From: a virus
DNA: 30,429 nt
Strand: one strand, 5' to 3'
IMG/VR virus record: IMGVR_UViG_3300045988_119600
A model generated the notes under the pieces. That model ran no database searches. It had not been told where the DNA came from and saw only the letters and a program-made list of their open reading frames with translations. Numbering within the stretch: position 1 is the first letter of the stretch; each line of letters opens with the position of its first letter. A program made the translations under genes and the position numbers. Of this stretch, positions 4,279-29,914 are shown piece after piece.

Positions 4279-4309
4279 AAGGATTTGCGTAAACCGCAAA
4301 TCCTTTTTT
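4279..4309 (+). terminator. Rho-independent terminator
   Basis: ggatttgcg-taaac-cgcaaatcc followed by a tttttt run. Confidence 0.8.
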
Positions 4310-4369
4310 GATTTTTTATAAAAAATAATATATAATATATATATAAAGTAAAGAAAGGAAATAAAAATT
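4308..4369 (+). promoter_or_regulatory. Conserved early promoter and leader (TTGATT-17-TATAAT, then atatataaagtaaagaaagga) driving gene 4370
   Basis: Copy of the motif that recurs at least 15 times across the window. Confidence 0.6.
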
Positions 4370-4690
4370 ATGACTACTTCTAATTCTAAGATTAAAACTC
4401 ATTCCATTGGTATTCTTTGTGATACGGCCGGAGACCATAATTTCTATTTCCTGAATGCGTCCGAAGCTGATATGCAGGAAATGTTTATGGAGTATTGTCG
4501 AGATATGGTCGATGATAGCCTTATGGAGCGTCAGTTCGAGACAATTCAGAAAGATTCTGATTATGATTGGTATCTTTACCACGGTGAGATGACCGGCGAG
4601 TGGACAAGAAGATTTTCTTCTTACCTCGATATGATGAACGAGGTCGCAAATGATGTTTTCATTGATTTCGTTGATGCGGTTGAAATGTAA
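4370..4690 (+). CDS. Hypothetical acidic protein (106 aa)
   Basis: ORF track; motif-supplied RBS aagaaagga. Confidence 0.65.
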   Translation: MTTSNSKIKTHSIGILCDTAGDHNFYFLNASEADMQEMFMEYCRDMVDDSLMERQFETIQKDSDYDWYLYHGEMTGEWTRRFSSYLDMMNEVANDVFIDFVDAVEM

Positions 4691-4701
4691 GGAGAATAAT
4701 T

Positions 4702-4983
4702 ATGAAAGAAATTTCTTGTTATAAAATTGAAGATGAGATGACCAGTAAGTCTTGGACCTTCGCCAATATTTCAGAAGCAGAAGCGGAAGAGTTATATCTC
4801 GCTTTCCTTGAAGGTGCGATCGAAGAAGACATTATGGAAACGCAACGAATTGAATACTTCGATCTCCCTCTTCCTAAGCCCGATTGGTGGAGAACAGAAG
4901 TGGATTATCAGAAAGAGGTTGATAAACTTCTTCTTATGGATGGCGAGTTCTATATGTATAAATTTAATGCTTACGTATTTTAA
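4702..4983 (+). CDS. Hypothetical protein (93 aa)
   Basis: RBS taaggaga. ORF 4808-5014 in another frame was rejected. Confidence 0.6.
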   Translation: MKEISCYKIEDEMTSKSWTFANISEAEAEELYLAFLEGAIEEDIMETQRIEYFDLPLPKPDWWRTEVDYQKEVDKLLLMDGEFYMYKFNAYVF

Positions 4984-4994
4984 GGAGGATATAA

Positions 4995-5729
4995 ATGATT
5001 CCTGGACTTTATGAAATCTTTAATACGCGCTGGGGCGGTCAGACGGTCTGGGTATCCTCTGATTGGCATTTTGGCGATTCAGACCTGCGGATTGGCCATC
5101 CCGACCGCATTTCTGATGATGACCTCGTAAAACTTTTGAATAGCAAAGCCGGTCGGAAAGACACGCTTATTTGCCTCGGTGATGTAGGTAAGATCTCCTA
5201 TGTGCGGAAACTGCGCGCCGGTTATAAGGTTCTTATCAAGGGCAACCATGATGCGGGATCTGAAAACTATAAGCGCAAAATCGTCAAGAAGAAGTTCTCT
5301 ATGGATTACTACCAAAAGGACGAAGCGCTTATGGAAATGAAGCGTCTTTATCCTGATTGCAAGTATTCTATTGATTCAGGATTTGATTTCCACACTCCCT
5401 TTGAATATTGGGAGATTACCGCGGACAACGGTCTTTTTGACGAAGTATATGATGGCGCGCTCATCATTGGTGAGAAACTTATGCTTTCTCACGAACCGAT
5501 TAAGCAGGACTGGGCTCTCGATCTTCACGGCCACGACCACAATCATAAAGAGACGGACATCTATCACAAGAATGTTTGTGTAGATGTGTTTGGCCCCGCT
5601 CCTTTGAATCTAAACCAGTTCATGAAAAATGGTCCAACCGCAAAGATCGGGAGCGTCCACAGAAAAACAATCGACACCGCGACCAAGAGAAAACAGAAGC
5701 GAGGAGGTAAAAAGATATGGGAGAAATGA
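4995..5729 (+). CDS. Calcineurin-like metallophosphoesterase (phosphatase or phosphodiesterase)
   Basis: Ordered MPP motifs SDWHFGD, LGDVG, GNHD and HGHDH. RBS taaggagg. Confidence 0.8.
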   Translation: MIPGLYEIFNTRWGGQTVWVSSDWHFGDSDLRIGHPDRISDDDLVKLLNSKAGRKDTLICLGDVGKISYVRKLRAGYKVLIKGNHDAGSENYKRKIVKKKFSMDYYQKDEALMEMKRLYPDCKYSIDSGFDFHTPFEYWEITADNGLFDEVYDGALIIGEKLMLSHEPIKQDWALDLHGHDHNHKETDIYHKNVCVDVFGPAPLNLNQFMKNGPTAKIGSVHRKTIDTATKRKQKRGGKKIWEK

Positions 5730-5887
5730 TTATTATGCTATTTATTATATTAGTATTTTTCGGCTTTATGTATATGGATTTGCTGGATGATAATACTATG
5801 TCTCTTAATGAGAAGTATTATTACTGCGGTATGGGCATGTTGCTTTGCCTGTTTGCCGGTTTCATTCAGTCAGTCTTTTATGCTTAA
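5726..5887 (+). CDS. Small hydrophobic peptide (53 aa). The ATG overlaps the upstream TGA (ATGA)
   Basis: MIIMLFIILVFFGFMYM… Below the ORF-track length cut-off. Confidence 0.35.
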   Translation: MIIMLFIILVFFGFMYMDLLDDNTMSLNEKYYYCGMGMLLCLFAGFIQSVFYA

Positions 5888-5966
5888 AGCAATCATTCTT
5901 TGTTTTTGCGCTCTTGGCATTTTATCCGTTTTGTTCGATGACTTAGATTAAGGAGGAGGAGGATAT

Positions 5967-6173
5967 ATGGTAGAGTTTATTGTAGAAATTATTCTTGGAT
6001 TAATTATAGCAAGGCTTGCCTTATGTATCTTCAAGCTTGCTGACGGCGCAAGTGCTCCCGAAGATACGTTTTTAATTGACACTTGTGTCATTACTGGAAG
6101 CTTATTACTTATAATTTCTACACTCCCAATCATATCAGGAGTATATGGAGTAATTCAATATTTTATTCATTAA
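5967..6173 (+). CDS. Small membrane protein (68 aa, two TM segments)
   Basis: RBS ttaaggaggaggagg. Confidence 0.55.
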   Translation: MVEFIVEIILGLIIARLALCIFKLADGASAPEDTFLIDTCVITGSLLLIISTLPIISGVYGVIQYFIH

Positions 6174-6186
6174 GGAGAAAATAGTT

Positions 6187-6591
6187 ATGCTTTATGTAGT
6201 TTTTATTCTTGCGTTTGCGGGCTTTATTGCTCTCGCAATTTGGGGTTTTGATAAATATTCTGCTCTTGGTTGTCTTACTTCGATTGTCGGCATCGCTGGC
6301 ACCGTTATCTTTGGAATCGTAATGGTATTTTCTACTATTGTGATTATCAATGAAAATGTATACAGTGATGCTCTTTATGAGAAATATACAACTCGTCGAG
6401 AAGCTCTTGAATGGCGACTCGAACAGGATTATACCGATAATGATAACAACCTTGGCGCAACTGAACTTTATAAAGAAATTCAGGAATATAATGAAGACCT
6501 TGCGGGCGCAAAATCTAATCGCGCGAACCCTTGGTTGAAGATCTATGCCGGAGAATATGTTGATCGGCTTGAATTTATTGAGCTAAAATAA
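6187..6591 (+). CDS. Membrane protein (two N-terminal TM segments, 134 aa)
   Basis: RBS taaggaga. Confidence 0.6.
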   Translation: MLYVVFILAFAGFIALAIWGFDKYSALGCLTSIVGIAGTVIFGIVMVFSTIVIINENVYSDALYEKYTTRREALEWRLEQDYTDNDNNLGATELYKEIQEYNEDLAGAKSNRANPWLKIYAGEYVDRLEFIELK

Positions 6592-6602
6592 GGAGAATAA
6601 AA

Positions 6603-7208
6603 ATGATTATTTGTAAACATTGCGGTCAGCCCATTTCTGATAAGTCAAAGATTTGTCCGTTTTGTGGAGGCAATGTAAAGGTTCCTTTCTATGATAAGAC
6701 ATGGTTCCATATTCTCCTTGTGCTTATCATCTTTGCGGGGATTGATTATGTCATTAGGAATCCCGATCCCGAACCTACTGTATATCGCACTCCAATTGTA
6801 GAGAACGCGGAAGCCTCGTCTCAGAGTTCGGATGATCCCATCGAAGAGATCGATGAACAGGAAACCGCGCCTAAGAGTGAAGAAGATAAATATTCTAATG
6901 AAAATATTAGTGATATGATCGCTCTTGTGGATAATTACCCTATGCAAGCAGAAGATTATGAGGGTCAATATATCCGCGTTTCAGGCTATGTGCGGAATGT
7001 GGATAGTGATGGTAAATATTTTACCATTGCCGAAGATGATGATAGTTTTGTTATTACCAATACAATTCAGTAGAAGATGAAGAAAACTTCTGATGTATAT
7101 GAGTTTATTAAAAATACTACTATTGGAACTTATATCACTGTTGAAGGTAAAATTACTGATGTTGGTGAAGTTATGTATTATCTCGGCGAAGCAGATAATG
7201 CGTATTAA
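6603..7208 (+). CDS. Zinc-ribbon + TM + C-terminal beta-rich domain protein. Reads through an in-frame TAG at 7071-7073 and ends at TAA 7206-7208
   Basis: The N-terminus reads CKHCGQ…CPFCGG followed by a TM helix. After the TAG there are 44 further in-frame codons with no stop (KMKKTSDVYEFIKNTTIGTYITVEGKITDVGEVMYYLGEADNAY*). The terminator comes only after 7208. Confidence 0.55.
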
Positions 7209-7213
7209 ACAAT

Positions 7214-7251
7214 AAGGACTTATGTTAATTCATAAGTCCTTATTTTATTTT
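7214..7251 (+). terminator. Rho-independent terminator, immediately followed by the conserved promoter and leader
   Basis: aaggacttatg-ttaatt-cataagtcctt followed by attttattttt. Confidence 0.8.
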
Positions 7252-7305
7252 TATAAAAAAATATAATATAATATATATATAAAGTTAAGAAAGGAATTGA
7301 AAATT

Positions 7306-7581
7306 ATGTATGTAGAGCTTTGGGATCTAATTGGTAGAAAGTATACTGATCCAGAAGATGATGAATACGCAATGCTCGTTTCTAAGGATGGCATTCATAT
7401 CGCCAACGCGGTTGAGATTCTTTTCTCTAAGGCTAAGGGTGAGGGTCGAATCCGCGAGTATAACATTGAAATCCCCTGCGTTTTTGATACAATCGGCATC
7501 GAAATGGTTTACGTGCTAATTGTCTCTTGGATTAATGCAGATGGCTCTCTTGGAACTTATTATACGGAGGTATGTCATTAA
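7306..7581 (+). CDS. Hypothetical protein. The track's 7297 start is a TTG; the ATG at 7306 sits at the conserved spacing from the leader
   Basis: Leader …aagaaaggaattgaaaattATG. Confidence 0.6.
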   Translation: MYVELWDLIGRKYTDPEDDEYAMLVSKDGIHIANAVEILFSKAKGEGRIREYNIEIPCVFDTIGIEMVYVLIVSWINADGSLGTYYTEVCH

Positions 7582-7829
7582 TGACTGTTTATGCTCTTTG
7601 TTATCATTATGATAGTTTTGGCGGTGATGATACCGCGGTGCTTAGCCTTTATTCTACTGAGGAAAAGGCTTTTGAAGCAGGACGAAAGAAAGAAAAGGAA
7701 GCGCAAGAGCGTTGGGAAAAAAATAAATCTATCTCATATTGCAAAAAGCCTTCGTTTGATGGATTTTTCGTTCACGGCTACGGCGACTACTATGTAAAGA
7801 TTATGGAAGTTGATAAGGAGACTATCTAA
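7581..7829 (+). CDS. Hypothetical protein, with TAATG stop/start overlap. The alternative start at 7572 is only 2 nt from its RBS
   Basis: ggaggt lies 11 nt upstream of 7581. Confidence 0.5.
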   Translation: MTVYALCYHYDSFGGDDTAVLSLYSTEEKAFEAGRKKEKEAQERWEKNKSISYCKKPSFDGFFVHGYGDYYVKIMEVDKETI

Positions 7830-8146
7830 TGGTTGTAATGATTTATGCTTATGAAAGCGTCTATTGCGGACTCCACGGTATTAATACTGGTGGTGTCTTT
7901 GAGGTTGATAGTGTCGCAGAAGCTGATGATATTGGCAAAGGAATGGCTTATGACGTAATCGACGGTTATAGTCATGCCTTTGAGGATTACGACTTAGAAG
8001 AGGTAGAGGAAGGCATTGAATGGGAAGTTTGGCCCGTCCGCGATAACACTGGGCTTTCCGTTAGTGAGCTTGACTGCGAATTTGCGAACCTCGGTAGAAG
8101 TCTCTTTATTGATGAGTATTGTTGTGTAGATATCCACAATACTTAA
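7829..8146 (+). CDS. Hypothetical acidic protein (105 aa), with TAATG overlap
   Basis: ORF track. Confidence 0.6.
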   Translation: MVVMIYAYESVYCGLHGINTGGVFEVDSVAEADDIGKGMAYDVIDGYSHAFEDYDLEEVEEGIEWEVWPVRDNTGLSVSELDCEFANLGRSLFIDEYCCVDIHNT

Positions 8147-8397
8147 TATAAAACTCTGGAAGGGCATTCTCTTCCCCAATAGGATAAAGTTTCAGTCCAT
8201 ACCGCTCAGGGGTGCTATTCAATAAGGTTAGATTATAAGTGGGTATGATAGTTCTGCTAACAAACTTGAATAGGCTATATTATATACGCTGAATCCTTGA
8301 TTGTATGATACCTCCAAAAAAGAGTTTTATTGATTTTTTATAAAAAAATATATTATAATATTTATAGAAAGTTAAAGAGAAGATAAAAAAAGGAGAG

Positions 8398-8676
8398 ATG
8401 CTTATGCTTGGCACTGTTAATATTCCTTATTCTAAAATTGAAGAAGATATTGAGAATATTTGCGTTGAGTATGGTCATGGTGGTTATGATGTAATGACTT
8501 GCGACGAGATCGCGGTTGATAAAATTATTGAATACTTCCAGAGTAAGCCCGCGTCTCAGCAATGGAATCTTTCTTGCTCTGAATGGCCTAATGAAAAAGG
8601 TGGCGCTTGCTTCATCTCTTGGGTTGAAGAAGGTCGTTTATGCGGTTATGGATTTGACTATTTGATGGAGGATTAA
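8398..8676 (+). CDS. Hypothetical protein (start may be the second ATG at 8404)
   Basis: Conserved promoter and leader at 8336-8397; RBS aaggagag. Confidence 0.6.
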   Translation: MLMLGTVNIPYSKIEEDIENICVEYGHGGYDVMTCDEIAVDKIIEYFQSKPASQQWNLSCSEWPNEKGGACFISWVEEGRLCGYGFDYLMED

Positions 8677-8677
8677 T

Positions 8678-8929
8678 ATGGAAGTTAAATTTTATCACAT
8701 TCAAACATATACCTGCTATTGTGGCGAAACAATAGATCATTTCTTTAAAGGCACGGAAAAAGAAATGGAACAATATGCGGAATCTTGTGTTGAAGATGAC
8801 GCTATGGAGTGGTGGGATCAGCAAAGCGAAGAAGACTTCTATGATGAGTATGACGCTTATCTTGCCGAATGTGGATACAATGTTTAGGAAGTCTCGGAAG
8901 AAGAATATGAAAAGTATAAGGAGTTTTAA
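8678..8929 (+). CDS. Hypothetical acidic protein that reads through an in-frame TAG at 8885-8887 to TAA at 8927-8929
   Basis: After the TAG, 13 in-frame codons (EVSEEEYEKYKEF*) end 2 nt before the next gene's ATG at 8932. This fits the tight packing seen elsewhere. Confidence 0.5.
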
Positions 8930-8931
8930 TT

Positions 8932-9246
8932 ATGAAAACGATTTACGCTATTAGAGACAATGAGACTGAGGAGATTGTTCTTCTTACAGAAACTATTGAT
9001 GACGCTCAGGAGACAGTTCTTTCTCTCCAAGAGGAAGCAATGTATGAGCGATTCCTTAGTGATACCGTGCGGTTCACAAGCTCTTATCTTACCATTGAAC
9101 CGGAAAAGTGGTGGGCTGAGGTCGCCAGTTTGAAAGATTGGTATAGCAAGCTTCAAGCCATGAAGTCTCCCTATATCACAACCGAAGGTTTCGCAATTCA
9201 GTTTAAGAGCCATGAATATTATATTGAGGAGCAGACAATCCTATGA
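8932..9246 (+). CDS. Hypothetical protein (104 aa)
   Basis: RBS aaggag; ATGA overlap with the next gene. Confidence 0.6.
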   Translation: MKTIYAIRDNETEEIVLLTETIDDAQETVLSLQEEAMYERFLSDTVRFTSSYLTIEPEKWWAEVASLKDWYSKLQAMKSPYITTEGFAIQFKSHEYYIEEQTIL

Positions 9247-9530
9247 AAAGAGTTCACTTAGTATGTGATGAATTTCGCCCCGTTTTAGCTTGCGGTGATC
9301 TTTCAGATGCATATGAAATGCTTCTTTCTTTTTATGAAGAAAGAACTTATGATGATTTTCTTTGGTCTTGTGTTTATCACGATTTATCCATTGAAGATTA
9401 TTTTGATAGTATGAAATGCTCTTTTGAGCTATATAATAAGTATAATAACTCTAAGAAATATGAAACGCTTGAAGCTTATATTTTAGAGGATGAAAAACAT
9501 TTTAGCATAGTTAGTATGTGGGAGGTGTAA
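9243..9530 (+). CDS. Hypothetical protein (95 aa)
   Basis: ORF track. Confidence 0.6.
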   Translation: MKRVHLVCDEFRPVLACGDLSDAYEMLLSFYEERTYDDFLWSCVYHDLSIEDYFDSMKCSFELYNKYNNSKKYETLEAYILEDEKHFSIVSMWEV

Positions 9531-9533
9531 AGC

Positions 9534-10253
9534 ATGGTAGCTCCGAGTTTTCAAAAATTTGAATTCATTGGCGACGTGTATGTATCTGCGGGAAAGAAAT
9601 ATATCCAGGTGAAGAACCCGAAAACCGGGACTATTCGTCAGGTGCGTTGGTATGAAGACGCGGAGTATGCTAAACTTTACCCCGAAAAATCCCAAGAGGT
9701 AGCAACCAAGATGGCTCCGCATCGTCAGGTTCTTGGGTTTGGCGATGCGGGCTACATCACGATTTTCAAAGGTAATTGTGATGAAGAGAACGATTGGTTT
9801 AAGATGAGCTCTGCGCGCTATACGCGGTTGTGGGGTTGGTATTTCCGCTCTTGTGATGAGATTCCTGCGCTTCCCGCAGATGTTGAACCGATTCGTCTTG
9901 ATTGGGATAAGGTCGGCGGAGCGGACGGCGAGCTTTATCGTGAAGAAGTGGTAAAGCACGCGGTTGATGCCCTTGTGTATGATGAGAGTTTGGCTCAGTG
10001 GATCGGCAACATCGGCGACCGCATTGAGATTACTGTGAAAATTGATGACAAGCACGCCCTTGAAAGTAAATATGGTCATACCATTGCTTATTCTATGAGC
10101 GATGTTGATGGTAATCAGTTTATGTGGATCACTTCTTCCAAGAGTGATTGGACTATTGGAAATACTTATCACATTCGTGGAACTGTGAAGTCGCAAGATG
10201 TTCGTAAGAATGTAAAGATTAACACATTAACAAGATGTAGTGAGGTAAAATAA
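9534..10253 (+). CDS. Hypothetical protein (239 aa), noticeably more GC-rich than its neighbours
   Basis: ORF track. The antisense ORF 9483-10196 was rejected. Confidence 0.7.
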   Translation: MVAPSFQKFEFIGDVYVSAGKKYIQVKNPKTGTIRQVRWYEDAEYAKLYPEKSQEVATKMAPHRQVLGFGDAGYITIFKGNCDEENDWFKMSSARYTRLWGWYFRSCDEIPALPADVEPIRLDWDKVGGADGELYREEVVKHAVDALVYDESLAQWIGNIGDRIEITVKIDDKHALESKYGHTIAYSMSDVDGNQFMWITSSKSDWTIGNTYHIRGTVKSQDVRKNVKINTLTRCSEVK

Positions 10254-10426
10254 TGACTGATAAGATGTATTGTGCGTATGATACGCTGAATCCTACTCTG
10301 AATCCTGATGGGACAGAAAAGCACTGGTGCGACTATTATAATAGTTATATTTGTCTTAAATGTCCTTCTCGGTTTAATGGTGAACGTATCAAAAATTATA
10401 TGGAAAATAATCCAAAGGAGCATTAA
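10253..10426 (+). CDS. Small Cys-rich zinc-ribbon protein (57 aa)
   Basis: RBS gtgaggtaaaataATG. C..C…C..C pattern; TAATG overlap upstream. Below the track cut-off. Confidence 0.45.
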   Translation: MTDKMYCAYDTLNPTLNPDGTEKHWCDYYNSYICLKCPSRFNGERIKNYMENNPKEH

Positions 10427-10429
10427 ATT

Positions 10430-11101
10430 ATGAAGAGATTTATTTGTGGTATTATTGCAATTATCCTTTGCCTTTCGTTGACCGCGTGCGATAGTCCAGA
10501 AACAACTACAATCACTGCCGAGCCAGAAGATGGCGATGTTAAGCTTTCTTTCCTTGCTACCTTCTATGATAACCACGGCGCCCAGTGGCTTCGGTGTGAA
10601 GGCGAGACCTTCGACATTAAGCCTAACAAGGTAAAGGAATGGGCTTATACTACTGATGGTAGTTGGGTTGGTTCGTATTCTCTTTCGTCAGTTGTAAGCA
10701 TTGACATTGATGGCAAAAGTATTGAGAGTTGCGGTTCTACTATTGTTTTTGCGGATAGCCGTCTCACTCAGTATGATGTAGATATTCCCGCGGAAGCCTC
10801 GACTAATAGTGGCAATGGAGCCAGCATTTCCGCGCCTACCGACCGCAGTTGGGATGAGTATTGGGATCTTTCTTGGTGGTATTGGAAGTCTAAGGATTTG
10901 AACAATGCGGATACCGGCAGTAAGATTGTAGTAATTCAGTCTCAGATGGGCGACCCCATTTGTATGTTTACTGGTGATAATATTTCTTGGAATATTCCGA
11001 AGAATCTTCCTAAGACTACTCAGTTAACGATTGATGGTAAGGCAGTATATATTCATCGTGCGAATTTCGCCATTATTGATACTGATTTATTCAATAATTA
11101 A
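10430..11101 (+). CDS. Lipoprotein (signal peptide with lipobox LSLTAC)
   Basis: MKRFICGIIAIILCLSLTAC-DSP… RBS aaaggag. Confidence 0.75.
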   Translation: MKRFICGIIAIILCLSLTACDSPETTTITAEPEDGDVKLSFLATFYDNHGAQWLRCEGETFDIKPNKVKEWAYTTDGSWVGSYSLSSVVSIDIDGKSIESCGSTIVFADSRLTQYDVDIPAEASTNSGNGASISAPTDRSWDEYWDLSWWYWKSKDLNNADTGSKIVVIQSQMGDPICMFTGDNISWNIPKNLPKTTQLTIDGKAVYIHRANFAIIDTDLFNN

Positions 11102-11125
11102 ATAAATTAAAAGTCCTTTTTTGAT

Positions 11126-11184
11126 TTTTTATAAATATTATTATATAATATTTATAGAAAGTTAAGAAAGGACTTTTTTTTTAT
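11126..11184 (+). promoter_or_regulatory. Conserved promoter and leader (TTGATT-17-TATAAT-atttatagaaagttaagaaagga), flanked by the inverted repeat aaaagtcc…ggactttt
   Basis: Motif copy. Confidence 0.55.
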
Positions 11185-11469
11185 ATGACTTATATTTCTA
11201 AGCCTGTTGTGCGTCATGATCAGTTCATTGAATGGCTTCATGACACTTTCCCCGATTGGACTGAGGATGATATAAATGATGTGGTGGAATTCCTTCTTGA
11301 TTATGGTAATTATGTAGAAATTCGTTTTATTGGCAATGACGAAGATCTATCTATCTGCGATGAAGATGAATTTGAAGTCTTTGCCAATGTAAATCGCGTC
11401 TATGCGGAACTCCGCAAATTCTTTTGCTATACCGATTACAAGATCCTGCTTGTATGTTGCGATTGGTAA
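11185..11469 (+). CDS. Hypothetical protein, tandem paralog 1
   Basis: 94 aa, clearly homologous to the 11502 product (WLHDTFP(D/E)W…NDEDLS…DEDE…FAN(V/A)NRVYAELRK(F/V)FC(Y/D)TDY…L(L)VC). Confidence 0.65.
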   Translation: MTYISKPVVRHDQFIEWLHDTFPDWTEDDINDVVEFLLDYGNYVEIRFIGNDEDLSICDEDEFEVFANVNRVYAELRKFFCYTDYKILLVCCDW

Positions 11470-11501
11470 AAAATGTAGAAAGTTAAGAGAGGACTTTTTT
11501 T

Positions 11502-11786
11502 ATGGATTATACTTTGAAACCTATTGTATATGGAAGTCAATTTAGGATTTGGCTTCATGATACTTTCCCTGAATGGTCAGAGAATGACATTGATGATGTT
11601 TTAGACATTATCCTTGGTGATTGGAGTTATACCGAAGTTTATTTCATTAACAATGATGAAGATTTATCTCTTGTTGATGAAGATGAGCGCGAAATTTTTG
11701 CTAACGCGAATCGTGTTTATGCCGAGCTTCGTAAGGTCTTTTGTGATACTGACTATGTAAGTATTCTCGTATGTCGTAGTTGGTAA
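11502..11786 (+). CDS. Hypothetical protein, tandem paralog 2
   Basis: Own truncated leader copy (aaaatgtagaaagttaagagagga). Confidence 0.65.
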   Translation: MDYTLKPIVYGSQFRIWLHDTFPEWSENDIDDVLDIILGDWSYTEVYFINNDEDLSLVDEDEREIFANANRVYAELRKVFCDTDYVSILVCRSW

Positions 11787-11855
11787 GATCTTTTTGACAT
11801 TTTTAAAAAAATAATATATAATATATATAGAAAATAAGAAAAGAGGTTATTTATT

Positions 11856-12098
11856 ATGGAGTATCACTACATAGCTCATGTTCATGCAGTAGACCCAGAA
11901 AAAGAAGATTTTCAGGGTGTAATGGTAGCCTCTGATTATTTGGAAGCAATTAAGCGTATTGTGTATTTCTATAAATACGATATTGCTTTTGTGGAAATTA
12001 TTATCGCTGATGATAAAACAGTTCCTTACCTTGGAGCGAAGATTACGTTTAGTCATCAGGCAATTTGCGATATATTAGGAGAGGATAACAATGATTGA
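11856..12098 (+). CDS. Hypothetical protein (80 aa)
   Basis: Conserved promoter and leader at 11786-11855. Confidence 0.6.
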   Translation: MEYHYIAHVHAVDPEKEDFQGVMVASDYLEAIKRIVYFYKYDIAFVEIIIADDKTVPYLGAKITFSHQAICDILGEDNND

Positions 12099-12366
12099 AA
12101 AAGTAATCGCGATTCATAGTGAGCGCTATGGCTTGGTGTTTTGCACGGCTACTGAAACTTGGACTCCCGAGGAATTCATTACCCATTTAGCTATTCCTCA
12201 CAAGTCTCGTTATAAGATTCGTGAAATTTGGGAAATGGATTATCCCGAAGATGGTATTCATGCTCATATGATGGATATTCTTATTAATAAAGATAAGGAT
12301 GGCAAAGCTCATACTGAGTTTGATTTCTTCTGGGACGATAAAGATACATTGGAGTGGATGGAGTAA
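12091..12366 (+). CDS. Hypothetical protein (91 aa)
   Basis: ATGA overlap with the upstream gene. Confidence 0.6.
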   Translation: MIEKVIAIHSERYGLVFCTATETWTPEEFITHLAIPHKSRYKIREIWEMDYPEDGIHAHMMDILINKDKDGKAHTEFDFFWDDKDTLEWME

Positions 12367-13884: not shown

Positions 13885-13905
13885 ATATAATAAAACCCCT
13901 TTCGC

Positions 13906-13948
13906 AAGAAAGCCCTTTGATTGACCGCAAAGGGCTTTCTTTATTTTT
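13906..13948 (+). terminator. Rho-independent terminator
   Basis: aagaaagccctttg-attgaccg-caaagggctttctt followed by tatttttat. Confidence 0.8.
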
Positions 13949-14013
13949 ATAAAAAAATATATTATAATATATATATAAAGTTAAGAAAGATATTAAAAAG
14001 AGGTTGATAAGAT

Positions 14014-15618
14014 ATGGCTAATTTATTTGAGCTCCTTTCCAAAGAAGATTGCGAAAAGATTGAAGAGTATATTCGTAATTTTGCGGGCCTCGGCGGAGAT
14101 AGTTCCGATATGAAGGCATCTCTCGACTACATTCTCCGCTTTTGGGCTTATAATAAGCAGAATCTTTATAAGATGTTGGGAGATAATCTTATCATTTCTC
14201 GTAAGGTAAGTTATTCTCGTTCTTATGAAGAGATGAGTGATGATTATTATGATTATTTCGGTAGAAATGGTGATGGTTTCGAATTCCGAAATACCTTTAA
14301 TAATAAGGTAAGAGATCTTTATCTCAGGACAACCATCTCTAATACTCAGTATCTTAATTTGGCAAGTCTTTTGGATGTTGAACCTTTAATGTCTAACATC
14401 TATGATGGTGAATCTTTTAAATTCACTTATAATAATAAAACTCTTATGATTAATAAGGGCATGAAGCTTAGTAAGATGCTTGGTAAGCTGAGTGATATTT
14501 TGGAGATTGACCGCGATGTTTATGAAAAGTTCCGTATCGCTCATTCTCAGTTCCTCAATCAGAAAAATATTTCTGGTGAACTTTGTCTTTCTGTTCATCC
14601 TCTTGATTATATCACTATGAGTGATAATAATTGCGGTTGGGATTCTTGTATGAGATGGCAGAATGGTGGTGGCGAATATCGTCAGGGAACCGTTGAGATG
14701 ATGAATTCTCCCATTATCCTTGAAGCTTATCTTAAATCTGATAAGGACATGGAAATTTGTTATAAGGTTGGTAAGCCTGTGATGTGGAATAGCAAGCGCT
14801 GGCGTGAACTTTTCATCGTAGATGAAAGTCTTATCCTTGGTATCAAGGGTTATCCTTATTGTAATGATAACCTTGAAAGTATTTGTCTCGCTTGGATCAA
14901 GAAGCTCGCTGAACAGAATCTTGGCTTTGGTCCTTATACCAAGTATTTAAATAAGATTCAGAATTACAGTAATAATATTATTGGTGAGTTTGATAGAAAT
15001 ATTTATTTCAATCTTGATACCAATTTCATGTATAACGATATCTATTCAGAGCATAATGCTTACGTTTCCACTAAGATTCCTACGGACGAAAACATTGATC
15101 TTAACTACTCGGGTGAATCTGAGTGTATGTGTTGTGGAGAGCTTCTTGATGATTCTCTCTTCGATGATAGAGAGAATAACGCGGAAATGACTATCTGTCC
15201 AAGTTGCTCGGGTGCAGTAAAGTGCGATAAGTGTGGCGATATTGTTTATGTCGATGACACTTATAATGTCGATGGAAAAACTTACTGCGCTTATTGTTAT
15301 GATGAAAGCACAGAAGTTTGTCCTTGTTGTGAAGTTCGTAAAGATTATGATGATATGAAGCAAATCCGTCTTCGATTCCAAAAGAAGCCAGTTGGATTCT
15401 ATGCGGATATTTGTTGGGATTGTTGTGGAGATAAAAAAGTAAAAACCTTCTTCACTGGTGAAATTGAAGAAGAAAGAGACGGTTGGCGCTCTAATTATTA
15501 TGTCGATGGAGAAACTCTCACGGAAAAGGGCAGAGACCTCTTTGACATTAATGAAGAGGAATTTATTTCTTGGGTGAATGGCACTAACCCAAATCAAAGA
15601 CCTTCTTTGATTTTTTAA
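14014..15618 (+). CDS. Large protein, paralog A. Unknown N-terminal domain with an LC(L/F)SVHPLD core, plus a C-terminal multi-CxxC zinc-ribbon array
   Basis: Shares ELCLSVHPLDYITMSDNNCGWDSC…GEYRQG…WNSKRWRELF with the 18105 product. C-terminus reads CMCCGELL…CPSCSG…CDKCGD…CAYCYDE…CPCCEV…CWDCCGDKK. Confidence 0.8.
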   Translation: MANLFELLSKEDCEKIEEYIRNFAGLGGDSSDMKASLDYILRFWAYNKQNLYKMLGDNLIISRKVSYSRSYEEMSDDYYDYFGRNGDGFEFRNTFNNKVRDLYLRTTISNTQYLNLASLLDVEPLMSNIYDGESFKFTYNNKTLMINKGMKLSKMLGKLSDILEIDRDVYEKFRIAHSQFLNQKNISGELCLSVHPLDYITMSDNNCGWDSCMRWQNGGGEYRQGTVEMMNSPIILEAYLKSDKDMEICYKVGKPVMWNSKRWRELFIVDESLILGIKGYPYCNDNLESICLAWIKKLAEQNLGFGPYTKYLNKIQNYSNNIIGEFDRNIYFNLDTNFMYNDIYSEHNAYVSTKIPTDENIDLNYSGESECMCCGELLDDSLFDDRENNAEMTICPSCSGAVKCDKCGDIVYVDDTYNVDGKTYCAYCYDESTEVCPCCEVRKDYDDMKQIRLRFQKKPVGFYADICWDCCGDKKVKTFFTGEIEEERDGWRSNYYVDGETLTEKGRDLFDINEEEFISWVNGTNPNQRPSLIF

Positions 15619-15624
15619 AAAAAA

Positions 15625-15708
15625 TAATATATAATATTTATGTAAGGTAAAGGAAGAGATACTTCCTAAAAATAAAATTGTTATTTATGAAAGGTTAAGG
15701 TAAAAATT
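15625..15708 (+). promoter_or_regulatory. Conserved promoter (TTGATT-17-TATAAT) with a longer leader containing the ggaagagatacttcc hairpin
   Basis: Motif copy. Confidence 0.5.
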
Positions 15709-16125: not shown

Positions 16126-16139
16126 GAATTAAATGATTA

Positions 16140-16171: not shown

Positions 16172-16243
16172 TTGTTATCTGCTCCGACCGGTGCTGGTCG
16201 CATATACCGAAAGTCCAAAAGTAAAAAGCCGTTTAGAATTTTC

Positions 16244-16272
16244 TTGACAAAATTAGAGTTTTTTGTTATAAT
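16244..16272 (+). promoter_or_regulatory. Near-consensus sigma70 promoter (TTGACA-17-TATAAT)
   Basis: ttgaca-aaattagagttttttgt-tataat, then AAGGAG 9 nt before the TTG at 16297. Confidence 0.6.
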
Positions 16273-16296: not shown

Positions 16297-17097
16297 TTGA
16301 AATATTGTGTTTCTGTGCGTCAACCTGATGTTGTTCGTGAGAAGGCTGATGAGCTTATGGTTAATTATAATGATATAAACATTATGTATGATATGATTTA
16401 GAAATTTCCTAATAAGCGATATATTATCAGAATCCGCAAAAACGAAGAAGTGAATTGGGAAGAGATTGATTCCTTTAAGGATAAAGTCGATCTTATTGTA
16501 GCATTTGAAGATATGCTTACTCGTAATGGATGTAATATTGATGTAAAGTATTATTTCGCTTATCCCGCTACTACATGGGCAGAAGTCCGCGTTCTCCTTG
16601 ATCTTAAAGTTAGCGAACTTTTCATCGGGGCACCACTTACATTTGATTTGAGACAATTAAATCAGCAAGCAAAAGTCCCAATTCGTATGATTGCGAATAA
16701 ATGCTATGACGATAATCTTCCAAGAGAAAATGGAATATGCGGTTCCTACGTCCGACCGGAAGACGTAGATTATTATGGAACATATGTCTCAACTTTAGAA
16801 TTTGACGAGCCCGCACTCTCCAAAGAAGCTGTGCTTTTGGATATCTATCAAAGTGGTCATTGGCAAGGTAATCTAAATCTTTTATTAACCAATCTAAATT
16901 ATAATGCGGATAATCGTGGAATCCCCGAAGATTTTGGCCCCAACCGCATCAATTGCGGTCAGCGCTGTCAACGACAAGGGACGTGCCATTATTGTGAAAC
17001 CGCATTTATATTCTCTCGTGTTATAGATAAAGCCGTTCAAGCAAGTAAGCAGAATAATCCTATCCCCGAGGCGGAAGAGGACTCAATTGACAAATAA
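16297..17097 (+). CDS. Hypothetical protein. The track shows 16450-17097, but the same frame is open back to TTG 16297 (or ATG 16357) through an in-frame TAG at 16399-16401
   Basis: A strong promoter and RBS sit directly upstream. There is no TAA or TGA between 16297 and 16450 in this frame, and the upstream translation is protein-like. Confidence 0.5.
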
Positions 17098-17148
17098 AAA
17101 AAATAATGTTATAATATAAATATAAGATAAAAGATAGGAGAATAAACT

Positions 17149-18255
17149 GTGAGAGGTTTTAAAACTAATGAACTTTGGTTATTTGAATATCTGGTTCGCT
17201 CGACGCAAGATGAGTTAAGGGAATATGTTGCCGATGTATTGAAATCTAAATATTCTGAAGTAGTTATTACTAAAGAGTATGTTTGTGCGGTTGGCGATAT
17301 TCCGATTGCCTTAGTGGCTCATCTTGATACCGTGTTTGAGAAACCGGTCAAAGATTTATATTATGACACAAGAAAAAATGTGCTTTGGTCACCTGAAGGT
17401 CTTGGTGCAGATGATAGAGCAGGAGTATATGCGATTCTTCATATTTTGAGGAATACATCTTTGCGCCCTTCTATTATTTTTACCACTGATGAAGAAATTG
17501 GTGGATTAGGCGCCGAAGCATTAGTATTACAATATTTTGAGTGTCCATTTCCTGATTTGAAATATATTATTCAGTTGGATAGACAAGGCACAAATGATTG
17601 TGTATTTTACGACCTTTACAATCCTAAATTCATTGATTACATTGAATCTTTTGGATTTGTAGAGGATTTTGGCACGTTTAGTGATATTAGTGTTTTATGT
17701 CCTGAATGGAAAATTTGTGGTGTAAATCTTTCAGTTGGATACAAGAATGAACATAGTCATGTTGAAACATTAAATGCGGGCGCTCTTTTTGATACGATTA
17801 ATAAGGTAATCCGCATGCTCCAAGAGAAAGATATCCCTAATTTTGAGTATTATCGTAATTATCATAATATTTGGTTCGATAATATTTGTAAGAATTTTCC
17901 AACTGATGGCGATGGATTCTACGTTCATTGTAGAGGATGCGGTCAGCTATTTAGTGAGTATGAAACATTTCCAGTAAAGGGATTAGATGGACATACATGT
18001 TTTTATTGTCCTGATTGTATTCCCAGTAATGTTGAATGGTGTGCGGAGTGTGAAGAGGCATTTGAAATTGACCCTGCGAACCCACACAGCGAGTATTGTA
18101 AAGATTGTATTGGAGGATTAGTCAAATGTCATATGACTTCGACATCGAAAGCATTAGAGAACAGTTCAACAAAGTCATCAGTTACTCCCAAGGAATCAGT
18201 AATCCAAAAACAGAAGAACTATTCGAAAGATTCCTCGAAGCCAAAAAAGACTTAA
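17149..18255 (+). CDS. Zinc exopeptidase-like (M42/M20 family) domain fused to C-terminal zinc ribbons. GTG start
   Basis: Motifs AHLDTVFE, GADDRAGV and TTDEEIGGLGA, in the order expected for the M42/M20 zinc-aminopeptidase fold. C-terminus reads CRGCGQ…CFYCPDC…CAECEE…CKDC. RBS aggaga 7 nt before the GTG. Confidence 0.65.
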   Translation: MRGFKTNELWLFEYLVRSTQDELREYVADVLKSKYSEVVITKEYVCAVGDIPIALVAHLDTVFEKPVKDLYYDTRKNVLWSPEGLGADDRAGVYAILHILRNTSLRPSIIFTTDEEIGGLGAEALVLQYFECPFPDLKYIIQLDRQGTNDCVFYDLYNPKFIDYIESFGFVEDFGTFSDISVLCPEWKICGVNLSVGYKNEHSHVETLNAGALFDTINKVIRMLQEKDIPNFEYYRNYHNIWFDNICKNFPTDGDGFYVHCRGCGQLFSEYETFPVKGLDGHTCFYCPDCIPSNVEWCAECEEAFEIDPANPHSEYCKDCIGGLVKCHMTSTSKALENSSTKSSVTPKESVIQKQKNYSKDSSKPKKT

Positions 18256-26351: not shown

Positions 26352-27131
26352 ATGATAGGAATTTATAAAATTACTAATAAAATAAATAATCATTGTTATA
26401 TTGGATAGTCAAGAAATATAGCAGAACGTTGGGAAAATCATATATATAGCTCCCAAGATGAAAAGAGTAAAAGCTATAATTATCCCTTATATCAAAGTTT
26501 CAGAAAATATGGTGTTTCTAATTTTATATTTGAAGTGTTAGAAGAATGTGAAATTGATAATCTAAATAGTAGAGAAACTTATTGGATTGATTATTATAAA
26601 CCAGAGTATAATTAGACAATAGGTGGAGATTATCGCGTAATTTATCAAAAATTAAATTATTAGGAAGTCCAAGATATTCAAAATATTTTAATTAATGATA
26701 AGTTAGGTGTAGTTAATCATTCGGAATTAGCTAAAAAATATAAAGTTAGTAAAGATACTATTAGAGATATAAATGTTGGAAGAACTTGGTTTAATGAAAA
26801 ATTAAATTATCCTTTACATTATTCTCGTTTTGATAAAAATAAACCAGAAGAAGAGAAAAAACTTTTAAAAAAAGTTTGTCCTATATGTGGTGGAGAGTGG
26901 AGCGGAAAAGGTCAAAAATGTTAGAAATGTTCTGCTAAAGAACATCGAAAAATTAAAAGACCTTCTCGTGATAAATTAAAAAAATTGATTCGTAATAAAA
27001 GTTTTACTTCTATCGCGAATATATATCATGTAAGTGATAATTCCATTAGAAAATGGTGTATTTCTTATAATTTACCTAATACAAAAAAAATTATAAATTT
27101 ATACACTGATGATGAATGGAAAAACATATAA
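26352..27131 (+). mobile_element. GIY-YIG homing endonuclease gene (259 codons) with four in-frame TAG codons, inserted in the tRNA cluster
   Basis: MIGIYKITNKINNHCYIG[TAG]SRNIAERWENH matches the GIY-(10)-YIG…R…E signature, with the TAG falling where YIGQS/YIGSS is expected. HTH-like NUMOD segments follow, and a CPICGG…KC[TAG]KC zinc finger has its TAG inside the CxxC. RBS gtaaggaga. Confidence 0.8.
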
Positions 27132-27212
27132 ATATTAGGCGTAATGCCGTAAGCCCTCTTTTAAGAGGTATCACAGTAATAAAGACACACACAGCAATCA
27201 TTTTCTATTGAA

Positions 27213-27284
27213 AGTATTTTAACTCATTGGTAGAGTATTTGTCTGTCAAACAAATTGTAGTTGGTTCAATTCCAACAAATATTT
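27213..27284 (+). tRNA. tRNA-Asp (GUC)
   Basis: Acceptor agtattt/aaatatt, anticodon stem tttgt/acaaa with loop cuGUCaa, T-arm gttgg-ttcaatt-ccaac. Confidence 0.7.
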
Positions 27285-27329
27285 CATTTGTGTCTTGTAA
27301 ATTAAAATAATCCAAAAGGAGATATCTAA

Positions 27330-27533
27330 ATGAAGTTTAAGTTTAAGCCCGGCGACAAGGTTTATTCTAAGAAGTATGGTAAGGGCTTTTGCCATCAGGT
27401 TGATGAACAGGATAAAGATTTTACTTATGATTTCCATTTTAAGGATGGCACAATCATTTGGATGTCCCGATATGATGGTGAGCGTTATGTAAAGTTCCGC
27501 AGACCGAAGAACGCGGAACCCGCAAACGCATAA
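27330..27533 (+). CDS. Small basic hypothetical protein (67 aa)
   Basis: RBS aaaaggagatatctaaATG. Confidence 0.55.
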   Translation: MKFKFKPGDKVYSKKYGKGFCHQVDEQDKDFTYDFHFKDGTIIWMSRYDGERYVKFRRPKNAEPANA

Positions 27534-27747
27534 TTTATCTTTCCTTTCTTTTTGAATAATTAAGGCGCTAACAGCAAACTTTAAAACATCAATGTACAAA
27601 ATACATATGCTTAAGATTGTTTATAGCGTCTTGTTCTATTTATATTGTTGATGTAGTACGATAAATAAAATATCACATTCTTTTAGTCAATTTTAAAGGA
27701 AGAATGACTACGTGGAGAATCGGGAATCGTAGCAATATAAATATTAT

Positions 27748-27823
27748 GGGCGGATAGCTCAGTTGGTAGAGCGTAGGATTGAAGATCCTAGCGTCGGCAG
27801 TTCGATTCTGTCTCCGCCCACCA
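27748..27823 (+). tRNA. tRNA-Phe (GAA), CCA encoded
   Basis: gggcgga…gctc-agttggtag-agc…anticodon stem tagga/tccta with loop uuGAAga…T-loop ttcgatt…tccgccc-a-cca. Confidence 0.85.
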
Positions 27824-28232
27824 AAAGACCAACAAATGAGGAACCTCTTTGCTGCTCGAGGCTGTTGGGATGCCTGTTAGAAAGGCTACTCTTCTATATA
27901 TTTAAATATATAGAAACAAAAGACTATACAATAGAGAGAGTCTTTTACATCTAGTTCATTTTCTTACTTATCTTTCTGTTTGATTTCCCCTTTCGTTTGA
28001 TATATAGATTGTTGTTTTCTCTCACTTCCATAGAAATGAATTGTTTTTCTACTCTCTATTTTGTTTCATAAAAATAAATAAAGAAGGAGGATTGTCTGAT
28101 ATGTTTAAAGATGTTGATGATTTGATCTTTGGCGATGAGCGCGAGTTTTGTCCTAGCGAACGATAAGTGCGGTCGCCTATCTAATGCTACCATAGGCTGG
28201 TTCCAAGTCCAGAAAAGCAGAGGAGGTAGGAT

Positions 28233-28469
28233 ATGAAAAATATTTTAAGCTATAAAAATCCTTGTTTTAGCGGTCAAGAAATTCTTGATTGGGCCAATTA
28301 TCAAGTGAATAATAAAACTTCTCATTATAAGCAAGGACTGAGAGTTTTAAATTTATTTGGTAATATTAAACCTGATAGAAAATATTATATTTTTAGTAAT
28401 TATCGCACTTGGCGTAGTTATTGTGGATATAGTATTAAGCCTAAGCTAATTATATATAGGTGTAAATAA
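28233..28469 (+). CDS. Hypothetical protein (78 aa)
   Basis: RBS agaggaggtaggatATG. Confidence 0.5.
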   Translation: MKNILSYKNPCFSGQEILDWANYQVNNKTSHYKQGLRVLNLFGNIKPDRKYYIFSNYRTWRSYCGYSIKPKLIIYRCK

Positions 28470-28562
28470 ATAGAATAATTGAGGCGTTGGGTGAGGGTGT
28501 GGTATGGTTTAAACGAGGATATCATCTGTTTAAGCAGTAAATTATTCTATTTATATATTATG

Positions 28563-28652
28563 AAGGAGTGGCAGAGCTGGTTGAATGCGGCACCCTGCTA
28601 AGGTGTTGGCCTCATTTGGGGCCCGGAGGTTCGAATCCTCTCTCCTTCGCCA
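28563..28652 (+). tRNA. tRNA-Ser (GCU), long variable arm, CCA encoded
   Basis: Acceptor gaaggag/ctccttc, anticodon stem gcacc/ggtgt with loop cuGCUaa, T-arm ggagg-ttcgaat-cctct. Confidence 0.85.
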
Positions 28653-28679
28653 TTAAATTTTAAATTAAGAGGATTAAGT

Positions 28680-29819
28680 ATGAATATTGTAAACGCTGGT
28701 TCTCGCTATCAGATTTATGGCGAGGACGTTAAGACTTATAAGCGACTTCCGCTTATGTCTTTTGAAGTCTGCTTTAGTAAGATGGCAGGTTTTTATCTTT
28801 CTTCTCGTCCAGATCTTGCGGTCAATGAGGAAAAAATTTATGGTAATCACGAAGTTAAAGTCAATAAGGTGCTTAATTCTTTTAAGTATTCAGACCGTAA
28901 TCTTGGTGTTATTTTAAGTGGTCAGAAGGGTATTGGTAAGTCATTGTTTGCTCGTATTCTTTCTCATCACGCTATTGAAAACGGATATCCTGTCCTTTTG
29001 GCTAATACTTATATGCCTGGTATCGCAGATTTTATTTCCAGTATCGAGCAAGAAGTCGTAATTATTTTTGATGAGTTTGAAAAGAATTTCTCTAATAACT
29101 CTGACGACCATGCGGGCCCCTCTCCGCAGGAAGAAATGCTTTCTCTTTTTGATGGTCTTGATAATGGTAAGAAGCTTTTTGTCATTACTTGTAATGAAGT
29201 TGATCGACTTAGCACTTATCTTTTGAATAGACCTGGTCGTTTCCATTATCATTTTAAGATTACTTTCCCAACTGAGGAAGAGATCGTTGAGTATTTGACT
29301 GATAAGGTTAAGCCTAAATACGCAGATGGTATTAAGGATATTGTGAATTTTTCTCGCACTGTTAATATGACTTATGATTATCTTCGAGCGATTGCTTTTG
29401 AACTTAATCAGGGTTATGGTGTGGCAGAAACTCTTGAAGACCTTAATATCTCTCAGACTTCCAATGTTCGTTTCAATATCACTATTACTACGGTAAATGG
29501 TGATGTATATAATACCTATGGTGCTTCAGTTAATTTGTTTAACAATCCTAATACCAATCATCAAAGATGGTATGATGGTTATGCCTCAGATAGTAAGACT
29601 ATTCGTTATGCCTTGACTCCTGATTCGATTAAGATTGAAAAGGGTATGATTACAGCTGATCCGAAAAAGGTTGAAGTTTACATTGATCCTGATGACTTTT
29701 GGACGATTACTGATGCTGAAAAGCGTAAGGAAGCTATTGAAAAGGCTAAAAATGAGCGCGTAATTAAGTCTGTTGTTTTAACTAAGGTCGCAAACACTAT
29801 TGAACAGTATCTTTATTAA
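28680..29819 (+). CDS. AAA-family ATPase (379 aa)
   Basis: Walker A GQKGIGKS, Walker B VIIFDEFE, then ITCN and LNRPGRFHYHF (the classic AAA second region of homology). RBS aagaggattaagtATG. Confidence 0.85.
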   Translation: MNIVNAGSRYQIYGEDVKTYKRLPLMSFEVCFSKMAGFYLSSRPDLAVNEEKIYGNHEVKVNKVLNSFKYSDRNLGVILSGQKGIGKSLFARILSHHAIENGYPVLLANTYMPGIADFISSIEQEVVIIFDEFEKNFSNNSDDHAGPSPQEEMLSLFDGLDNGKKLFVITCNEVDRLSTYLLNRPGRFHYHFKITFPTEEEIVEYLTDKVKPKYADGIKDIVNFSRTVNMTYDYLRAIAFELNQGYGVAETLEDLNISQTSNVRFNITITTVNGDVYNTYGASVNLFNNPNTNHQRWYDGYASDSKTIRYALTPDSIKIEKGMITADPKKVEVYIDPDDFWTITDAEKRKEAIEKAKNERVIKSVVLTKVANTIEQYLY

Positions 29820-29825
29820 CGCGAC

Positions 29826-29866
29826 GGCCGATGTAAAGTGAATATACTTTACATCGGCCCCTTTTG
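29826..29866 (+). terminator. Rho-independent terminator
   Basis: ggccgatgtaaagt-gaatat-actttacatcggcc followed by ccttttg. Confidence 0.8.
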
Positions 29867-29914
29867 ACTTTATAAAAAAAATATTATATAATAAATATAT
29901 GAAAATAAGAAAAT
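29866..29914 (+). promoter_or_regulatory. Conserved promoter and leader (TTGACT-17-TATAAT-aaatatatgaaaataagaaaatg) driving the tRNA pair
   Basis: Motif copy directly upstream of a tRNA. Confidence 0.55.

Follow-up and report, generated by a model that had tools for sequence, protein, structure and literature searches.

A repeated promoter-leader block in a large gut phage: a candidate strong early promoter that extends into its transcript

The window analyzed here, a 30,429-nucleotide stretch of viral DNA (IMG/VR record IMGVR_UViG_3300045988_119600), contains 15 full copies of a 51-nt promoter-leader block, all on the plus strand, and one extra leader without a promoter. On balance, we favor the explanation that this block is a strong early promoter for the host sigma-A RNA polymerase, whose initial transcribed sequence belongs to the promoter. 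As judged from its sequence, the block would be one lineage's own form of the type of strong early promoter for which phages T5, T4 and SPO1 are known. What is unusual is that 14 to 16 transcribed nucleotides are as invariant as the hexamers and are common to mRNA, tRNA and small-RNA units.

Structure, occurrence and conservation of the block

The block consists of TTGAYW, a 17-nt A/T spacer, TATAAT, ATWTAT and then AKAAAGTWAAGAAAGG. Its extended form reads (c)TTtt-TTGAYW, a spacer in which a T-tract is followed by an A-tract, TATAAT, ATWTAT and A-K-AAAG-T-W-AAGAAAGG. All 15 copies have TTGAYW or TTTATT as the -35 hexamer and TATAAT as the -10 hexamer, and the spacer pattern is conserved too, with a length of 17 nt in all copies but one (18 nt). 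These are sigma-70/sigma-A-type promoters oriented with their genes, as originally predicted, and their hexamer distances fall within the 17 +/- 1 bp expected of this class. C is found at ~0% at every position from -35 to +16. Positions +1 to +16 are 86% purine, the median first C before open reading frames (ORFs) is at +33, and YG steps occur in 20% of the copies, so that the block shares with N25-type promoters a purine-rich, C-free non-template strand from +1 to about +20. The original prediction described a transcribed leader of ~25 nt. Only about 16 nt of it are likely transcribed. ATWTAT, which separates the -10 hexamer from the start site, would be the discriminator rather than part of the transcript, and the first transcribed base would be an A ~7 nt past the -10 hexamer. 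For most copies, a start codon or tRNA lies within 27 to 80 nt of the -10 start. All copies in the window are on the gene strand, and one minus-strand copy in the left flank (related locus L140) precedes minus-strand genes.

The -35 hexamers of the copies start at 4308, 7244, 8330, 11121, 11794, 13940, 15607, 17087, 23287, 23615, 23857, 23945, 25325 and 29864, and an additional full copy at 1546-1596 lies outside the range first described. Extraction of TTKAYH-N16-18-TATAAT sites with their flanks, together with a weight matrix made from the copies and spanning -30 to +30, bears out all 15 sites of the original prediction, although several of its positions were 3 to 18 nt off. Its partial copy at 11470 is a real leader (11471-11492) but has no promoter. 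With at most 1 mismatch, TTGAYW-N17-TATAAT matches the window 19 times, compared to 3.3 +/- 1.8 times in dinucleotide shuffles, and none of 100 shuffles reaches 19. For the 22-nt leader with at most 3 mismatches, there are 7 matches in the window and 0 expected from shuffles. On the plus strand, the weight matrix gives 15 strong matches of 45 to 77 bits. Only weak matches are found on the minus strand, where four (three of 16 to 18 bits and one of 39 bits) are echoes of plus-strand copies and the fifth (4015, 16.8 bits) is a separate plain minus-strand promoter at 4010-4038. This promoter and a plus-strand one at 16244 are perfect sigma-70-type promoters without the spacer pattern and without the leader, indicating that the block is not merely how any promoter looks in this DNA.

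To collect related loci, a 28-mer of the element, TATAATATWTATAKAAAGTTAAGAAAGG, was searched for exact matches; it is present in more than 113 stretches from IMG/VR contigs, most of which are 100-200 kb long. In 1.07 Mb of these loci, the matrix finds 268 unique matches, 151 of which have unrelated downstream sequence. Across these 151 copies, the information content jumps at the first T of the -35 hexamer and reaches background ~28 nt after the -10 start (about +16). Leader matches stand at a fixed distance from the -35/-10 pair in 191 of 228 cases. Among relatives at 70-95% identity (90% overall), ortholog identity is 99.4% for the -35 hexamer, 96.6% for the spacer, 100% for the -10 hexamer, 98.2% for the discriminator and 98.5% for +1 to +14, compared to 89-93% for the flanks. 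Among the 14 paralogs of the window whose spacer is 17 nt long, identity is only 77%, whereas orthologs are 97-100% identical, so each copy is under purifying selection and individually conserved. Concerted evolution was considered as the main cause of the similarity and rejected, since paralog identity is far below ortholog identity.

With an A+T content of ~90%, the block could in principle be a generic low-complexity artifact of aligning AT-rich DNA, the outcome that the original prediction named as fatal to it. However, shuffles yield no leader match, the matches are strand specific, the block has fixed Gs and lacks C, conservation among orthologs is higher in the copies than in the DNA around them, and the promoters at 16244 and 4010-4038 have -35 and -10 hexamers without any leader. 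Shuffles, strand bias and ortholog conservation thus exclude an artifact, to which we assign practically no chance.

Constraint on the transcribed part and its rival explanations

The 3' end of Firmicutes 16S rRNA, ...CCUUUCU, is complementary to AGAAAGG. Among 250 copies close to an ORF, the distance from the -10 start to the start codon is most often 39 nt (mostly 37-41), which places the codon 11 nt past a GG that is present in 106 of the 152 copies of the main start-codon class. Thus the leader does supply the ribosome binding site (RBS) at most protein genes, as originally proposed, through its terminal AAGAAAGG. Another 36 genes start at least 46 nt downstream, as after copies 1546, 8330, 13940 and 15607 of the window, and 26 of these 36 have a recognizable Shine-Dalgarno (SD) sequence of their own. 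GG is kept in only 9 of the 36, while the leader core agrees at 11.4 of 14 positions, compared to 11.2 of 14 in the main class.

The same holds before tRNAs. In the window, the leader precedes tRNA or tRNA-like genes at copies 23287 and 23857 as well as 23945 and 29864, in line with the original prediction. Across the related loci, positions +1 to +14 are equally conserved before 60 tRNA-proximal and 271 ORF copies (positions 6-25 after the -10 start are alike), whereas G at positions 26 and 27 falls from 60-73% and 48-65% before ORFs to 50% and 17% before tRNAs. The earliest tRNAs start 27-31 nt after the -10 start and none sooner, and some abut the leader directly, such as the tRNA that follows TATAAT-ATTTATAGAAAGTTAAGAAAT in related locus L064 or the tRNA-Leu that follows 29864-29914 in the window. 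Moreover, the variable leader positions are Gs (13 G/T, 17 G/A and 22 G/A), while A positions are nearly fixed, which is the opposite of selection for anti-SD pairing. The leader therefore has a function beyond ribosome binding, as the original prediction suspected, since its core is kept before tRNAs, small RNAs and far-start genes while GG drops. A reading as translational enhancer or RBS only is ruled out by the tRNA and far-start classes. An upstream AAAGnCCTTTT was also considered as an anti-SD and rejected, being only ~50% conserved and better explained as a terminator tail or a proximal UP-like A-tract.

We propose that each copy would be read by the host RNA polymerase with its primary sigma factor (sigma-A/sigma-70 type) as a strong early promoter made of TTGAYW, a 17-bp T-then-A-tract spacer, TATAAT, the A/T discriminator ATWTAT, an A start and the purine-rich, C-free initial transcribed sequence A-K-AAAG-TW-AAGAAA. 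The first ~14-16 transcribed bases would be constrained mainly as part of the promoter. Likely benefits would be easy melting, a start with ATP, no need for CTP, few YG pause steps and fast escape. Such effects are known elsewhere: the initial transcribed sequence of the T5 N25 promoter is purine-rich and C-free to +30, and its replacement cuts output ~10-fold (PMC12464699), while high-throughput escape data show that purine content and GA/GG favor escape and that YG slows it (PMC5961368). By this analogy, the constraint probably acts on initiation or escape rather than on the RNA. Every product would then carry the same short leader, to which downstream elements would adapt. Protein genes would add GG, creating the SD sequence AGAAAGG with the start codon 11 nt on; tRNA genes would be placed right after the leader, at +15 to +20, for RNase P to remove it; and small Y-RNA-like RNAs would have 3' tails that pair with it. 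When RNAs that follow the leader are folded computationally, their 3' tails pair with it from 10-14 nt past the -10 start onward, an independent result that agrees with a start near position 12.

The distribution of TAG codons suggests early timing. Promoter-proximal genes have 4 internal TAGs in 33,438 codons (0.12 per 1000), compared to 490 in 172,369 codons (2.84 per 1000) for the long ORFs of the same contigs. This ~24-fold depletion fits expression before a switch of the TAG code, according to the model of bioRxiv 10.1101/2021.08.26.457843. About 18 plus-strand copies lie within ~40 kb of small genes and tRNAs, few are found to the left, and none in the tail-fiber and diversity-generating retroelement (DGR) genes to the right.

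Several points weigh against this explanation. The position of the start is deduced from the sequence, and a DNA-level constraint and a required RNA 5' end would both predict the fixed distance between promoter and leader. Early timing is likewise deduced, from the sigma-A consensus, TAG depletion and the map. The rules of escape come from Escherichia coli RNA polymerase, so that the benefit for this sequence is argued by analogy. Moreover, the phages are uncultured and their host is resolved to phylum only. Retrieval of related loci by the element itself biases some of the statistics. To reduce this bias, copies were re-ascertained on -35/-10 alone (473 unique sites) and exact matches were set aside, and most of the remaining sites still carry the leader. 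Finally, the leader at 11471, between tandem paralogs, survives without a promoter in four genomes, suggesting that its RBS part can work alone.

Instead of acting in the promoter, the leader could act as RNA, being a 5'-terminal tag or stabilizer on early transcripts or the site of a phage RNA-binding protein, nuclease or 5' modification; in the stabilizer form, a polypurine or SD-like 5' end would bind 30S subunits and block RNase J1 or RNase Y. We regard this RNA-level explanation, in either form, as unlikely but worth serious consideration. The leader is purine-rich, lies at the very 5' end and keeps a fixed relation to the start site. Two AGAAAG-like units within it could pair with the 3' tail of Firmicutes 16S rRNA, and Y-like RNAs use the leader for their closing helix. 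In addition, SD-dependent 5' stabilizers are documented, one of them from an SPO1-like phage (Hue 1995, as cited in PMC7509114 and PMC11805744). However, the G positions needed for anti-SD pairing (13, 17 and 22) are the most variable ones, GG and SD-like complementarity are lost where translation does not need them, and the consensus has no 5' hairpin. Before tRNAs, a 15-nt leader that RNase P removes could not stabilize or otherwise matter for the mature product, and downstream RNAs adapt to the leader, not the reverse. The processing or stability site and the phage-factor site suggested by the original prediction are disfavored on these grounds, while a stabilizer for mRNAs is plausible. 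More speculatively, the invariant 14-16-nt leader may be an RNA identity tag on all transcripts made before the code switch, spanning the mRNAs, tRNA precursors and Y-RNA-like RNAs of TAG-recoding gut phages and read by a phage or host factor. We consider this claim rather doubtful; if true, the leader would be more than a piece of the promoter, and the tag could help to protect or cap the 5' end, to load ribosomes selectively, or to have these transcripts degraded together at the early-to-late or code switch.

Two further explanations were considered. Similarity among copies could come from the spread or recombination of a mobile terminator-promoter cassette, with the leader as a passenger, as in the promoter early stem-loops (PeSLs) documented in T4-type phages (PMC2839356, PMC4122927). 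Four copies abut strong terminators (4308, 7244, 13940 and 29864), and synteny breakpoints occur at or beside copies at 8335/8375 (8 related loci), 7204-7206, 11184, 11747 and 23559-23596. Furthermore, a promoter-plus-gene unit starting exactly at 25324 recurs in other contexts with ~67% identity. We nevertheless hold this origin to be improbable, because a stem-loop is adjacent in only 4 of the 15 copies, breakpoint enrichment in strict windows is weak (3 of 34 distinct breakpoints, p = 0.22, from alignment endpoints), and conservation edges are sharp and position specific. The gap between paralog and ortholog identity also indicates individually conserved copies without homogenization, and where recombination does occur at the blocks it is probably incidental. 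Slightly less probable again is that the spacer and the -10-to-+16 region serve a phage regulator as operator or loading site, the regulator being either an early shut-off repressor or a Q-like antiterminator acting at a sigma-dependent pause on a second -10-like element, TATAKA. The spacer TTTTTATAAAAA is palindromic, TATAKA lies 3 nt past the true -10, conservation exceeds what -35/-10 recognition needs, and short terminator-bounded units would suit antitermination control. However, an A/T-only sequence easily gives A/T palindromes, the spacer varies as T/A tracts and not as a fixed dyad, and no candidate regulator was identified. TATAKA spans nucleotides 9-14 counted from the -10 start, or about -3 to +3, and so overlaps the proposed start, unlike lambda PR'; this position does not support a pause site of the lambda Q type, which calls for the -10-like element within +1 to about +10.

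Individual copies and neighboring RNAs

The copies, each running from the -35 hexamer to about +16, differ in how their genes use the leader. At 4308-4358, the best match to the matrix (77 bits), AAGAAAGG is the SD sequence for ORF 4370-4690 and a terminator (4278-4306) abuts the -35 hexamer. The copy at 7244-7294, with TTTATT as its -35 hexamer, precedes an ORF whose ATG is at 7306 and is likewise abutted by a terminator (7211-7244). Copies at 11794-11844 (TTGACA) and 23615-23665 are upstream of ORFs 11856-12098 and 23678-23860, respectively, and the copy at 25325-25375, with an exact consensus leader, is followed by a small ORF. The weakest leader belongs to the copy at 17087-17137 (45 bits), which has TTGACA, a TGT before the -10 hexamer and ORF 17149-18255 downstream. 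Among the far-start genes, ORF 1616-1813 after copy 1546-1596 (55 bits) uses its own downstream SD sequence AAAGGTGA, ORF 8398-8676 after the copy with the 18-nt spacer (8330-8381) uses its own GGAG, and ORF 14014-15618 after 13940-13990, which a terminator at 13906-13941 abuts, uses its own AGAGG. The leader of 15607-15657 enters a small hairpin (GGAAG/CTTCC), and the ORF starts 79 nt after the -10 start. The internal control at 16244-16272 on the plus strand is a perfect TTGACA-17-TATAAT without the A/T spacer pattern or the leader.

The copy at 11121-11171, with an exact consensus leader, is upstream of ORF 11185-11469, and the leader without -35/-10 (11471-11492, plus strand) precedes its tandem paralog, ORF 11502-11786. 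This leader-only copy is kept in related loci L021, L079 and L098. The two paralogous genes encode 94 amino acids each and have ~70% DNA identity to each other's orthologs; relative L075 apparently has a single copy. An inverted repeat (11109-11176) brackets copy 11121, with AAAAGTCCTTT 5' of the -35 hexamer and AAAGGACTTTT as the leader end, followed by a T-run. Read-through RNA could form a long-loop hairpin that hides the SD sequence, an arrangement seen in this copy only.

Four copies are associated with tRNAs or tRNA-like RNAs. The one at 23287-23337 lies before a stem-wrapped tRNA-like RNA (23334-23443) and tRNA-Trp. Copy 23857-23907 is the first of two tandem promoters before tRNA-Asn, with no ORF following, and the second, 23945-23995, is placed with tRNA-Asn (24014) 46 nt from its -10 start, GG being replaced and the leader forming a short hairpin. 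At 29864-29914, the block abuts tRNA-Leu (29915), which would start about +16 to +17, and a terminator (29826-29859) is just upstream. In several non-coding or long-leader copies (15642-15670, 23985-24005 and related loci L013, L023 and L046), a CTTCC or TCCTT stretch close by is paired with the purine-rich leader end in a small 5' hairpin, which would sequester SD-like bases.

The stem-wrapped RNA belongs to a module of the form AAG-R-C-N4..-CWGCAA ... N4-G-Y-CTTG, found in the window at 23334-23443, 27182-27297 and 27562-27633 and about 50 more times in related loci. Its stem sequence differs among copies while complementarity is kept, and a complementary partner exists for 87 of 262 module sites, compared to 11 with permuted arms. 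The modules enclose tRNA-like domains, short hairpins or a true tRNA-Asp, and some give full-length but sub-threshold matches to the Rfam family YrlA (Y RNA-like), with 34-45 bits against a gathering score of 69. Within the module directly after copy 23287 and before tRNA-Trp, ARAGORN reports a "tRNA-???" at 23358-23428 with a 6-nt anticodon loop (CUUCAA), which has an Rfam tRNA score of 44 bits. Between tRNA-Phe and a small ORF, the segment 28178-28228 matches the type-P1 twister ribozyme model over its full length but below threshold (39 bits, with a gathering score of 67.2; E = 2.6e-5), and the same match is present in related locus L114. Rfam has no family for the leader itself.

The phage, its relatives and known early promoters

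A megablast search with 8 kb of the window against GenBank phages gave no match, so the phage does not correspond to an isolate with a known sequence. The AAA ATPase encoded at 28680-29819 shares 40-43% identity with proteins of Herelleviridae (Enterococcus phage EF24C and Bacillus phages) and 49% with an unannotated human fecal contig, and an identical protein is encoded on gut-metagenome contigs of ~193-195 kb. In an exact-pattern scan of 185,579 species genomes, the element was found only on contigs binned into Firmicutes metagenome-assembled genomes (MAGs), namely, Oscillospiraceae, Lachnospiraceae, Eubacterium, Acutalibacteraceae, Erysipelotrichia and "Mollicutes". Many of these contigs, of 148-180 kb, are presumably phage. 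A host promoter type was rejected, since matches in the scan of bacterial genomes occur only in MAG bins, on long contigs that are likely phage. The original argument against a Bacteroidetes host is strengthened by SD use, the Herelleviridae relatives of the AAA ATPase and the restriction of matches to Firmicutes MAG bins. At the left end of the window, the first ~1.5 kb has minus-strand ORFs and the GC skew within 1-4000 changes sign near 3000-4000; the plain minus-strand sigma-70-type promoter at 4010-4038 sits inside the plus-strand gene run.

Two genes for Gly-rich proteins (PF12810; 20568-21980 and 21962-23278) have 5 and 4 in-frame TAGs and end in TAA. A GIY-YIG endonuclease gene (26352-27131) has 4 in-frame TAGs and a TAA end, and one of its TAGs lies inside a "YIG*S" motif, as would be expected if TAG were read as Gln. 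The same phage encodes a CUA-anticodon tRNA ~4.2 kb beyond the window end (L114:15957-16046). The in-frame TAGs and this tRNA place the phage among the large TAG-recoding gut phages that bioRxiv 10.1101/2021.08.26.457843 surveyed, a stop-codon-recoding preprint that does not discuss promoters. A full-text literature search for the motif returned nothing relevant.

Among known systems, early promoters of the T5 PN25 type are read by host polymerase with very high strength, as the block would be, and share with it in sequence a consensus -10 hexamer, an A/T-tract spacer, an A start and a purine-rich initial transcribed sequence without C that runs into the SD sequence. The block differs in sequence and host phylum (Firmicutes-type SD sequence, A/T discriminator), and its initial transcribed sequence is near-invariant over hundreds of copies in many genomes, also before tRNAs and small RNAs. 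The PeSLs of T4-type phages are likewise repeated sigma-70-type early promoters, often beside a terminator stem-loop and among small orphan genes, with some rearrangement junctions at the motif (PMC2839356, PMC4122927). In contrast to them, the block has a stem-loop in 4 of 15 copies, no G/C-tract stem motif, weak breakpoint enrichment and a conserved part that reaches into the transcript, which is not in the PeSL definition. The host-takeover module of SPO1 reportedly consists of short early operons, each with a strong sigma-A promoter, RBS and terminator (a description attributed to Stewart et al. 1998). SPO1 is a member of Herelleviridae, a family with proteins ~43% identical to the AAA ATPase of the window, and our phage would resemble it in having clustered short early operons in a large Firmicutes phage, whereas the SPO1 promoter consensus does not reach +16. 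Neither the SPO1 terminal redundancy nor the closest GenBank record, MT835544, has a copy of the spacer or leader, indicating that the element is not a general Herelleviridae signature. As far as published descriptions of them allow comparison, the SP82 5' mRNA stabilizer and STAB-SD are similar in being polypurine and SD-like and in lying 5'-terminally on early transcripts of phages with Firmicutes hosts, but the block does not keep its SD complementarity where translation does not use it.

The block does not reveal a new principle, as T5 already has strong, stereotyped early promoters in which the initial transcribed sequence is functional, and T4-type phages have promoter cassettes in repeated copies. 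It does allow early transcription units, and probably their start sites, to be mapped from sequence in uncultured gut phages of ~100-200 kb, whose hosts are placed in Firmicutes by binning and sequence features. Moreover, within a genome that recodes a stop codon, it connects these units with the genes that keep to the standard code (TAG-free). The block also provides a natural case for how much of a "promoter" lies downstream of +1, and, being compact and presumably strong, it might serve as a promoter-plus-RBS part in Clostridia and Bacilli.

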